DNA from: a virus
Taxonomy: Duplodnaviria > Heunggongvirae > Uroviricota > Caudoviricetes
DNA length: 49,350 nt
Strand: one strand, 5' to 3'
Virus record (IMG/VR): IMGVR_UViG_2671180676_000008
The notes under the pieces are model-generated. The model had not been told where the DNA came from, made no database searches, and was given only the letters and a program-made list of their open reading frames with translations. Every line of letters begins with the position of its first letter. The first letter of the stretch is position 1. Shown here in pieces: positions 32,183 to 36,422 of the stretch. The position numbers and the translations under genes were made by a program.

Positions 32183-32462
32183 TTCTCAATCTCTCGATGG
32201 CGCAGCGCAGCAGATGCCAGTTGTTCAGGCTGACGAATAAAGTATAAATAAACTGGCTATGGTGTAAAGCCCCACATAGCATGAACAAACACTACATATC
32301 AAATAGCTGGTACAAGGATAGAAATACGACATTTATTATTAAAAACGATTAGATAAATTACATTTTAATGTTATGCAAAAGTTCTTTTTTATCATAACAT
32401 TTCAATAAAAGCATTACAGATGCAATCATCCCGTCATCATCAATTATTTAAGGTGGTTAAAC

Positions 32463-32549
32463 ATGGAAAATAACAAGTTCGCACATCTCGCTCCTTTTTT
32501 ATCCGTAATCCTTTTCGCTTGTTGTTTTATATGGGCATTATTTTTATAA
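32463..32549 (+). CDS. Candidate small hydrophobic peptide (28 aa)
   Basis: ATG preceded by AAGGTGG at good spacing; translation MENNKFAHLAPFLSVILFACCFIWALFL; in an AT-rich spacer. Not in the ORF track. Confidence 0.3.
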   Translation: MENNKFAHLAPFLSVILFACCFIWALFL

Positions 32550-32940
32550 AGTAGCCACATGATAAGTTGCTGGAATCATATTTCCCACTCAAGTCATTAA
32601 CATTTGATAAGATATATCTAAAAGGACACCTTTACATTATTTATGTGTATATAATTTATTTATATACACAGTAAAGGTATCCTGGGAAAATATTTATCGT
32701 TAAAAAATACATCATAAATAATTAAGCTGAAATTTCAGAACACAACTAATACACACAATAAGGTTCAGTAACAATAATCTATGTGGACTACATCGAGATT
32801 TTTTGATTAAACTTTAATAACTTATTCCTAACACACAGAATGCATAAACTAAAAGTAAAACAAATAGTTATACGAAAAACAACCATATTTATTATATCTT
32901 CTCCTCTAATCAACATATCAATTATGTGTTTCATAACAGC

Positions 32941-32988
32941 TTGACATAACCCTCAAAAACACGCATTTATAATACATGTTTTTGAGGG
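32941..32988 (+). promoter_or_regulatory. Promoter-like elements with a 12-bp perfect inverted repeat upstream of the yeaR-like gene
   Basis: TTGACA (32941..32946) and TATAAT (32968..32973), 21 bp apart; inverted repeat ccctcaaaaaca/tgtttttgaggg (32951..32988) encloses a GCATTTATAATACATG core and overlaps the SD. Confidence 0.4.
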
Positions 32989-32995
32989 GGTGGTT

Positions 32996-33334
32996 ATGAC
33001 ACACAAGAGAATTCCTAAAGATTGGGTAATCAAACGCTCAACTCCGTTCTTCACAAAAGAGAACGTACCTTCAGCGTTATTAACACATCATAATACAGCA
33101 GCAGGTGTTTTTGGGCAGTTGTGCGTAATGGAAGGCACTGTAACATATTATGGTTTTACTGATGAGAATGCTACTGAACCGGAGATAAAAGTAGTCATTA
33201 ATGCTGGCGCTTTTGCAACAAGCCCACCACAATACTGGCACCGTGTTGAACTAAGCGATGATGCTCAGTTTAATATTAACTTTTGGGTCGCTCCAGACTT
33301 CTCGGGCGAAAAAGTCTATAGCACCAAAAAATAG
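32996..33334 (+). CDS. YeaR-like DUF1971 family protein
   Basis: RSTPFF..K...GV.G.L.VMEG.V.YYGF.DE...EP...I.AG.FA..PP.YWH..E...D..FNI.FWVAP pattern matches E. coli YeaR as I recall it. Confidence 0.65.
   Translation: MTHKRIPKDWVIKRSTPFFTKENVPSALLTHHNTAAGVFGQLCVMEGTVTYYGFTDENATEPEIKVVINAGAFATSPPQYWHRVELSDDAQFNINFWVAPDFSGEKVYSTKK

Positions 33335-34096: not shown

Positions 34097-36422
<2,326 letters not shown>

Follow-up and report, generated by a model that had tools for sequence, protein, structure and literature searches.

A probable 28-codon gene for a hydrophobic peptide in a prophage cassette of Escherichia and Shigella, with a candidate antisense RNA opposite its leader

The window, a 49,350-nt stretch of viral DNA (Caudoviricetes; IMG/VR record IMGVR_UViG_2671180676_000008), is a Rac-like lambdoid prophage of E. 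coli, to which strain BR1220 is identical across 808 nt (32183-32990). Within it, a small open reading frame (ORF) of 87 nt, stop codon counted, lies on the plus strand in AT-rich surroundings with a GC content of 0.27-0.30 (32250-33000). To the left of the ORF, on the minus strand, are DUF1367, DUF1364 and a Q-like gene with DUF1133, then the lysis genes, and to the right is a DUF1971 gene (32996-33334, plus strand), beyond which SIR2, Ham1 and adenosine deaminase genes form an operon on the minus strand. This layout places the ORF at the edge of a variable cargo slot and opposed to the phage early operon. The original prediction, made from the window alone, had described an ATG with AAGGTGG at ideal spacing in an AT-rich spacer, and all of these elements are present. 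The nearest in-frame upstream stop is at 32406-32408, with no ATG, GTG or TTG between it and the ATG. The parts of the locus, with their identities between deep lineages of the sequence, are as follows.

32330-32378, no strand assigned: conserved upstream block cATTTATTATTAAAAACGATTAGATAAATTACATTTTAATGTTATGCAA, the most conserved part of the cassette (90-94% identity)
32379-32441: linker, fast-evolving (45-55% identity)
32442-32462: Shine-Dalgarno (SD) region (about 70-80% identity)
32450-32456, plus strand: Shine-Dalgarno sequence AAGGTGG, 6 nt before the ATG of the small ORF
32463-32549, plus strand: small ORF with ATG at 32463 and TAA ending at 32549, 28 codons, peptide MENNKFAHLAPFLSVILFACCFIWALFL (80-83% identity over the segment)
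32550 onward: downstream flank (25-32% identity), with homology stopping at the stop codon

On this profile of identities, the small ORF is part of a cassette of ~220 bp (32330-32549) consisting of the 49-nt block, the linker of ~65 nt, the SD and the ORF. The number of genomes with a match is 1177 for the upstream block and 1174 for the ORF, and the two always co-occur. The cassette resides in Rac/Qin-type lambdoid prophages of Escherichia and Shigella, where it occupies the edge of the variable cargo slot beside nin-like genes (DUF1367 or rem) with its ORF oriented against the phage early operon. Four unrelated downstream contexts start directly after the stop codon of the ORF.

Context 1, ~70% of copies: hokD terminator hairpin and variants of it, with the ORF converging on hokD
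Context 2, ~20% of copies: AT-rich spacer and DUF1971, as in the window
Context 3, ~9% of copies: cargo with an S8 peptidase
Context 4: one divergent contig (L079)

In the hok-type loci, hok stands between the cassette and sok (RF01794). Examples include L003 (3001-3370), L128 (4141-4489), L002 and L006, in which the stop codon of the ORF adjoins the U-tract of the hokD terminator AAACCCGCCGAAGCGGGTT. The cassette also occurs without hok, as in the window, and the Qin prophage of K-12 has rem and hokD and lacks the cassette.

The sequence AAGGTG-N5-9-ATG occurs five times in the window with 2.1 occurrences expected, and at least five were reached in 8 of 100 shuffles. The SD and ATG signal alone is thus no better than chance, and the case for a gene rests on comparative data. 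A BLAST search with 261 nt around the ORF gave matches in 1,174 of 5,426 complete E. coli genomes, ~700 of which matched at ~80% identity over 32428/32448-32550 only, that is the SD and the ORF. A first allele sample of 123 copies, gathered by N-terminal pattern from IMG/VR and E. coli loci, contained 11 alleles encoding eight peptides, and every copy had 28 codons. The second sample, 164 evaluable copies found through the upstream block, is independent of the ORF because of the way it was gathered. The ORF was intact in 163 of these, the sole exception being interrupted by IS1.

Across the 11 alleles, the variable sites at the first, second and third codon positions number 4, 6 and 17 (chi-square p=0.004). 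Among the four deep lineages, Nei-Gojobori dN/dS is 0.06-0.17 at a dS of 0.4-1.3 (Fisher p 6e-6 to 3e-3), and the amino-acid replacements are conservative ones that suit a membrane helix (V/I, L/V, A/V and F/L). By these measures of substitution, the small ORF is under strong purifying selection. The original prediction had named a lack of conservation of the reading frame in homologous regions as grounds for its own rejection, and the opposite was clearly the case. The frame of the small ORF is the only one open in all 11 alleles, every other frame being stopped in some allele. An antisense frame (32444-32560, 38 aa) shares its third-codon positions with the small ORF, so that position bias alone cannot separate the two strands; this frame was rejected as a coding candidate because it is interrupted by a stop codon in 8 of 11 alleles, namely all of those beyond the window lineage. 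Taken together, the comparative data make it very probable that 32463-32549 is a real protein-coding gene.

IS1 was encountered at or near the cassette at three loci: within the ORF after codon 19 in L005 (APEC_AN-25), just left of the conserved block in L002 (S171-1), and inside the spacer region in H24 (RM10740).

The SD is not uniform among the alleles. Other lineages carry AAGGTGA or AAGGTAG, and in the commonest hok-adjacent allele (L003-type, 52 of the 123 copies in the first sample) it is weakened to AAAGTG, with AAAGCG in one sub-lineage. The weak SD of the commonest allele, the position of the ORF 3' end against the hokD terminator U-tract, and the third positions shared with the antisense frame, which leave the strand ambiguous by position bias, would all suit an untranslated frame, in which a conserved RNA or DNA element such as an sRNA, the hokD terminator region or a protein-binding site carries an incidental open frame. 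This is very improbable. A dN/dS as low as that observed, with near-saturated dS, would not come from constraint at the RNA level, and the start, stop and length of the ORF are invariant over the four downstream contexts, some of which have no hokD. The stops in the antisense frame and the absence of any Rfam match also argue against it.

The surroundings of the ORF bear equally on the idea that it encodes a leader peptide, or uORF, which regulates a downstream gene: DUF1971 in the window, or elsewhere hokD by read-through. In the window lineage, the ORF and DUF1971 are on the same strand and are kept together over 1.15 kb at 90% identity, and no plus-strand terminator was found between them. 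The hairpin shared with hokD in the hok-type loci has a U-tract that is poor in the plus direction, so that read-through antisense to hokD is conceivable. However, DUF1971 is 440 nt away from the ORF and has an SD and a hairpin of its own, and such strong purifying selection on the amino-acid sequence is not expected of a leader peptide apart from the gene that it controls. Since homology stops at the stop codon and a different neighbour follows in each of the four contexts, the ORF is taken not to be a leader peptide, a role that is considered highly unlikely.

Several other features were observed around the ORF. Near the start of DUF1971 (32950-32998), an 11-bp inverted repeat is formed by CCCTCAAAAAC (32950-32960) and GTTTTTGAGGG (32978-32988), the right arm of which contains the DUF1971 SD (ATG at 32996), with a TTGACA just upstream of the repeat (32941-32946). 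This repeat may be a hairpin of translational or transcriptional control; Rfam returned only a chance-level miRNA hit there. The 440-nt AT-rich spacer between the ORF and DUF1971 also holds a perfect 11-bp palindrome, TGTGTATATAA-N5-TTATATACACA (32644-32670), at which neither an ORF nor a known RNA family was found. The strongest promoter-like site of the region, TTTACA-16-TATACT (10/12), lies on the minus strand just upstream of the DUF1367 gene (32241-32268) and is conserved in the hok-type loci upstream of a rem-like gene (L003 2808-2835). In these cryptic prophages, the nin-like operon is probably transcribed from it. The cargo slot of the window contains three overlapping genes on the minus strand (34097-36422), encoding an adenosine deaminase (PF00962; CARF_ADA deaminase domain in PADLOC, 2.9e-36), a Ham1/ITPase (PF01725) and a SIR2_2 protein (PF13289; best PADLOC match ThsA/STALD, 9e-32). 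This set looks like a nucleotide-targeting defence operon, and the combination was not found as a named system in PADLOC.

The taxonomic distribution of the gene is very narrow. A GTDB scan of 185,579 species representatives with the core motif AHxAPFLSxILF returned only Shigella flexneri, the peptide of which is identical to that of the window, and two IMG/VR scans built for more divergent alleles, with known alleles excluded, gave no hits. Only four phage isolates carry the gene. Both 'plasmid' matches are records of 4.8-4.9 Mb, as large as a whole chromosome. In CFT073, the gene is located at NZ_CP058222.1 3049644-3049730. RefSeq annotates nothing at the matched positions in any E. coli genome among the matches listed, none of the eight peptide variants was found by exact look-up in a collection of 15 billion proteins, the peptide string was not found among 8 million full-text papers, and a recent Hok survey does not mention the small ORF. 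An ORF of 87 nt is under the usual minimum length of gene callers, and the earlier suggestion that the gene had been overlooked on account of its length agrees with these results.

The peptide has a polar N-terminus (MENNK) followed by ~20 hydrophobic residues that extend up to the C-terminus. The mean Kyte-Doolittle value of residues 10-28 is 2.46-2.62, and both this value and the extent of the ORF agree with the single transmembrane-like hydrophobic peptide of 28 aa that had been predicted. The C-terminus reads ...CFIWALFL, in which the only aromatic residues are Phe22, Trp24 and Phe27, and no charge is present beyond Lys5. With its length and predicted transmembrane stretch, the peptide lies within the bounds used for toxin-antitoxin (TA) systems of type I (<70 aa and a predicted transmembrane stretch; PMC2887945). 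A polar or charged C-terminal tail is described for most type I toxins (PMC2887945); this feature is missing from the peptide, which ends WALFL.

Searches with the peptide gave no hits in Pfam at E<=10, none in PADLOC or the PDB, and matches in PHROGs only at E>=0.1. In NCBIfam, only a sub-threshold match to a lipoprotein signal peptide was obtained (14 bits with a cut-off of 35). The known toxin families, including Hok/Gef, Ldr, Ibs, TisB, ShoB, ZorO, DinQ and others in Pfam and NCBIfam, gave no significant profile match. The proposed resemblance to type I toxins or small membrane proteins stands for size and for the single hydrophobic helix; the polar C-terminal tail and similarity to a known toxin family are missing. 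A lipoprotein signal peptide was considered and rejected. The window has LFAC at the relevant position, but the commonest alleles have FVLC or VFCC, and only six to eight residues would be left after cleavage; as the lipobox is not conserved, the peptide is not taken to be a lipoprotein. Nor did the RNA searches identify a relative. With Rfam 15 (sok, RdlD, Sib, IstR, OhsC, OrzO, SymR and others), nothing was found on the window cassette at E<=1, and in five related loci the cassette was without a match at E<=0.1, sok being found only beside hok. The cassette is considered a new family at the sequence level, and the kind of element to which it belongs is known.

Given that the block is more conserved than the synonymous sites of the ORF, it is constrained at the nucleotide level. 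Two features of the plus strand fall within or beside it.

32336-32364, plus strand: candidate mRNA promoter with -35 TTATTA (32336-32341), a 17-nt spacer and -10 TACATT (32359-32364)
32367-32401, plus strand: inverted repeat H1, AATGTTATG - 17 nt - CATAACATT, with arms at 32367-32375 and 32393-32401 in the minimum free energy (MFE) fold

The basis for the candidate promoter is that its hexamers are invariant and the spacer between them is variable; in other lineages the -10 is TAAATT. The mRNA of the peptide looks like it starts at about 32370 from this weak promoter. An alternative -10, TATTAT at 32334-32339, ranks second on the plus strand in a position weight matrix (PWM) scan and would give a start near 32346, and no plus-strand candidate passes a stricter consensus scan. 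In the mRNA, H1 would fold into a hairpin located at the 5' end or close to it. Its core of eight pairs holds in 34 of 34 alleles on the plus strand (G-C in 18 and G-U in 16; U-A in 33 and U-G in one), without two-sided compensation among those alleles, and 15 of the 28 distinct rows have a broken inner pair when read as the minus strand.

The leader is not predicted to occlude the SD any more than shuffled leaders do. Occlusion by a long-range anti-SD helix was rejected, since the helix holds in the hok-type lineages and is broken in the window lineage. In the L003-type alleles, the changes in the SD preserve pairing with an upstream CUCGUUU segment, through a series of A-U, G-U and G-C.

A block of invariant hexamers with a variable spacer would suit a plain promoter, and the cassette has several traits of a moron: it is on the opposite strand to the early operon, AT-rich and located in the cargo slot. 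Its own promoter is putative, and its terminator comes from the context rather than from the cassette. The gene might accordingly be a benign prophage moron that encodes a non-toxic small inner-membrane protein of the lysogen, with the block acting as promoter, operator or 5' leader and no dedicated antisense RNA being made. Such a peptide might modulate a host membrane protein or exclude a superinfecting phage. The coding evidence fits this explanation equally well, its orientation and position are typical of morons, the allele in the window has a strong and apparently unoccluded SD, and the peptide is without the polar tail of type I toxins. E. coli has many small membrane proteins of similar size that are not toxins. 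However, an identity of 90-94% in the block, tighter than that of the coding sequence, is unusual for a weak sigma-70 promoter, and further evidence on this explanation comes from the minus strand, where the following features are found.

32443-32470, minus strand: candidate antisense promoter with -35 TTTTCC/TTTCCA over ORF codons 1-3 and -10 AATAAT (32448 to 32443)
32335-32352, minus strand: hairpin H2, CGUUU-UUAAUAAU-AAAUG followed by the U-rich UCGUAUUUCU, candidate 3' end of an antisense RNA
32326-32436, minus strand: putative antisense RNA of ~110 nt, complementary to the mRNA 5' leader and extending through the mRNA promoter

The antisense -10 is located just upstream of the SD. A 5-of-6 hexamer is present at this position in all four deep lineages, with A2 and T6 retained (TATGAT, CATAAT or AATAAT), and in a hok-type locus the promoter scan flags the antisense promoter as TTTCCA-16-CATAAT (9/12). 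H2 is a stem of 5 bp. On the minus strand all cells of its comparison pair, with two compensated pairs and G-U intermediates, values that 15 of 500 shuffles reach; on the plus strand it is mismatched in 9 of 34 alleles. H2 was recovered by RNAalifold, and the hok-type H2 (CGCTTTTAATAATAAGCG then TTGTGTTTAT) is flagged by a terminator scan. A U-rich run follows H2 in most lineages, with no U-tract in L079, and the window H2 is weak, having only one G-C pair.

Linker and block can pair on the minus strand in an interrupted helix of 15 bp, which all the sampled hok-type alleles except one have in full and which varies only where wobble keeps the pair (Fisher test, p=0.004). Its covariation is not significant when compared with a shuffle control (reached by 75 of 500 shuffles), and in the window lineage the helix is lost, with 8 of 15 pairs holding. 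Together, the minus-strand promoter-like site, H2 and the 15-bp helix suggest an antisense RNA of ~110 nt directed against the whole leader. This RNA would be AU-rich, with folding z-scores of -1.5 in the window and -0.7 to -2.1 in other lineages relative to shuffles. The search for an antisense partner that the original prediction had proposed has therefore yielded a conserved promoter-like site and a hairpin particular to the minus strand, and no match to an Rfam antitoxin RNA.

Two other minus-strand candidates were rejected. An antisense promoter candidate, TTATCA-17-AATAAT at the ORF 3' end (32565 to 32537), has its -35 in the non-homologous flank and loses its -10 in the AVFL alleles. 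A short minus-strand sRNA from the extended -10 TGTTATGAT (32399 to 32391) has an MFE of -3.8 and a z-score of +1.0, no better than shuffles, and the extended -10 itself loses its TG in half of the alleles and its T6 in L079.

A benign moron with a plain promoter leaves unexplained both the minus-strand-only pairing of H2 with its two compensated pairs and the retention of a 5-of-6 -10 on that strand in four lineages despite their differing sequence. On the other side, the putative antisense RNA is weakly structured and the covariation mostly one-sided. The benign explanation is the main rival to the model favoured below and is somewhat less probable than it.

The favoured model, which is given about an even chance of being correct, is that of a type I TA-like module composed of a membrane toxin and an antisense RNA. 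The mRNA of the peptide would start in the conserved block at about 32346-32370, which gives a leader of 90-115 nt. From the opposite strand, the promoter whose -35 overlaps the start codon and whose -10 occupies 32448-32443 would produce the ~110-nt antisense RNA, covering the whole leader and ending at H2 (32352-32335). By pairing with the leader, this RNA would hold translation or mRNA stability low. Were the short-lived antisense RNA to disappear, for instance when the prophage is lost or transcription is shut off, synthesis of the peptide would follow, and its insertion into the inner membrane would depolarise or damage that membrane. A block that is more conserved than synonymous sites is what would be expected if both strands were constrained, and this is counted for the antisense RNA. 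By analogy with known systems, the narrow taxonomic range, the placement on a mobile element beside hok/sok and the weak SD of the commonest allele have a type I flavour and are likewise counted for the model; the WALFL end, the lack of a family match, an AU-rich RNA that folds near the level of shuffles and a predicted terminator stem of 5 bp are counted against it.

In its most specific form, the proposal is put forward tentatively and at a little below even likelihood: the cassette would represent a new type I TA family of Escherichia and Shigella, with a 28-aa membrane toxin and a ~110-nt cis-antisense RNA, placed in ~220 bp at the boundary of the cargo/defence slot of Rac/Qin-type prophages. 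It would usually stand tail-to-tail with hok/sok, one bidirectional terminator serving both membrane toxins, and it might join hok in prophage retention or abortive infection.

Around one fifth of complete E. coli genomes, CFT073 included, together with Shigella flexneri carry a strongly selected gene that is without annotation or protein-database entry. Should it prove to be a toxin that has an antisense RNA, the short list of type I systems in E. coli would gain a new family, and the question would arise why hok/sok is its neighbour so frequently at the border of the prophage defence slot. A benign peptide would still be a new small membrane protein with good support, and worth a name. On either reading, length cut-offs conceal conserved genes in prophage spacers.

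Among known systems, ldrD/rdlD resembles the putative module in combining a small hydrophobic peptide, a long 5' leader and a cis-encoded antisense RNA to the leader rather than the coding region, and its distribution is likewise narrow and enterobacterial (PMC2887945). It has no sequence similarity to the peptide. LdrD has 35 aa with a Trp followed by a charged C-terminal cluster, whereas the cassette peptide ends WALFL; RdlD is well structured with a strong terminator, whereas the putative RNA is AU-rich with a terminal stem of 5 bp; and the ldr loci are chromosomal tandem repeats, whereas the cassette is single-copy and located in prophages.

The toxins of shoB/ohsC, zorO/orzO, tisB/istR-1 and dinQ/agrB are similar to the present peptide in length (26-29 aa) and in having a single hydrophobic helix (PMC2887945; PMC3919570), and the tail of ShoB is also purely hydrophobic (LLFL; PMC2887945). 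These genes too were un- or late-annotated, and their most conserved element is non-coding and located upstream of the toxin ORF (PMC2887945; PMC3919570). zorO is missing from K-12 and common in other E. coli (PMC2887945; PMC3919570). They differ in that their sRNAs are divergent with short pairing, whereas the RNA proposed here would be fully cis-antisense to the leader, and they share no peptide or RNA homology with the cassette; toxicity and sRNA were shown experimentally in those systems, while the putative module described here is a prediction from sequence.

YnfS (29 aa, K-12 Qin, ribosome profiling) occupies another prophage position and has no BLASTP similarity to the peptide that could be detected; it resembles it in size, in its hydrophobic C-terminal half, in a Cys-Cys pair and in its residence in a cryptic lambdoid prophage. 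In the E. coli K-12 Qin prophage (L007), ynfS is located at 1123-1212.

Hok, with ~50 aa and a periplasmic domain, belongs to another family. The hok/sok system nevertheless occupies the same prophage cargo slot as the cassette, converges on the ORF and has a terminator hairpin in common with it in ~70% of loci. It encodes a membrane-active peptide, and both it and the cassette are enriched in Escherichia prophages (bioRxiv 10.1101/2025.08.07.668861). Considered by analogy, the layout of the proposed module is closest to that of ldr/rdl, and the size of its peptide is closest to ShoB, ZorO, TisB and DinQ (PMC2887945; PMC3919570).
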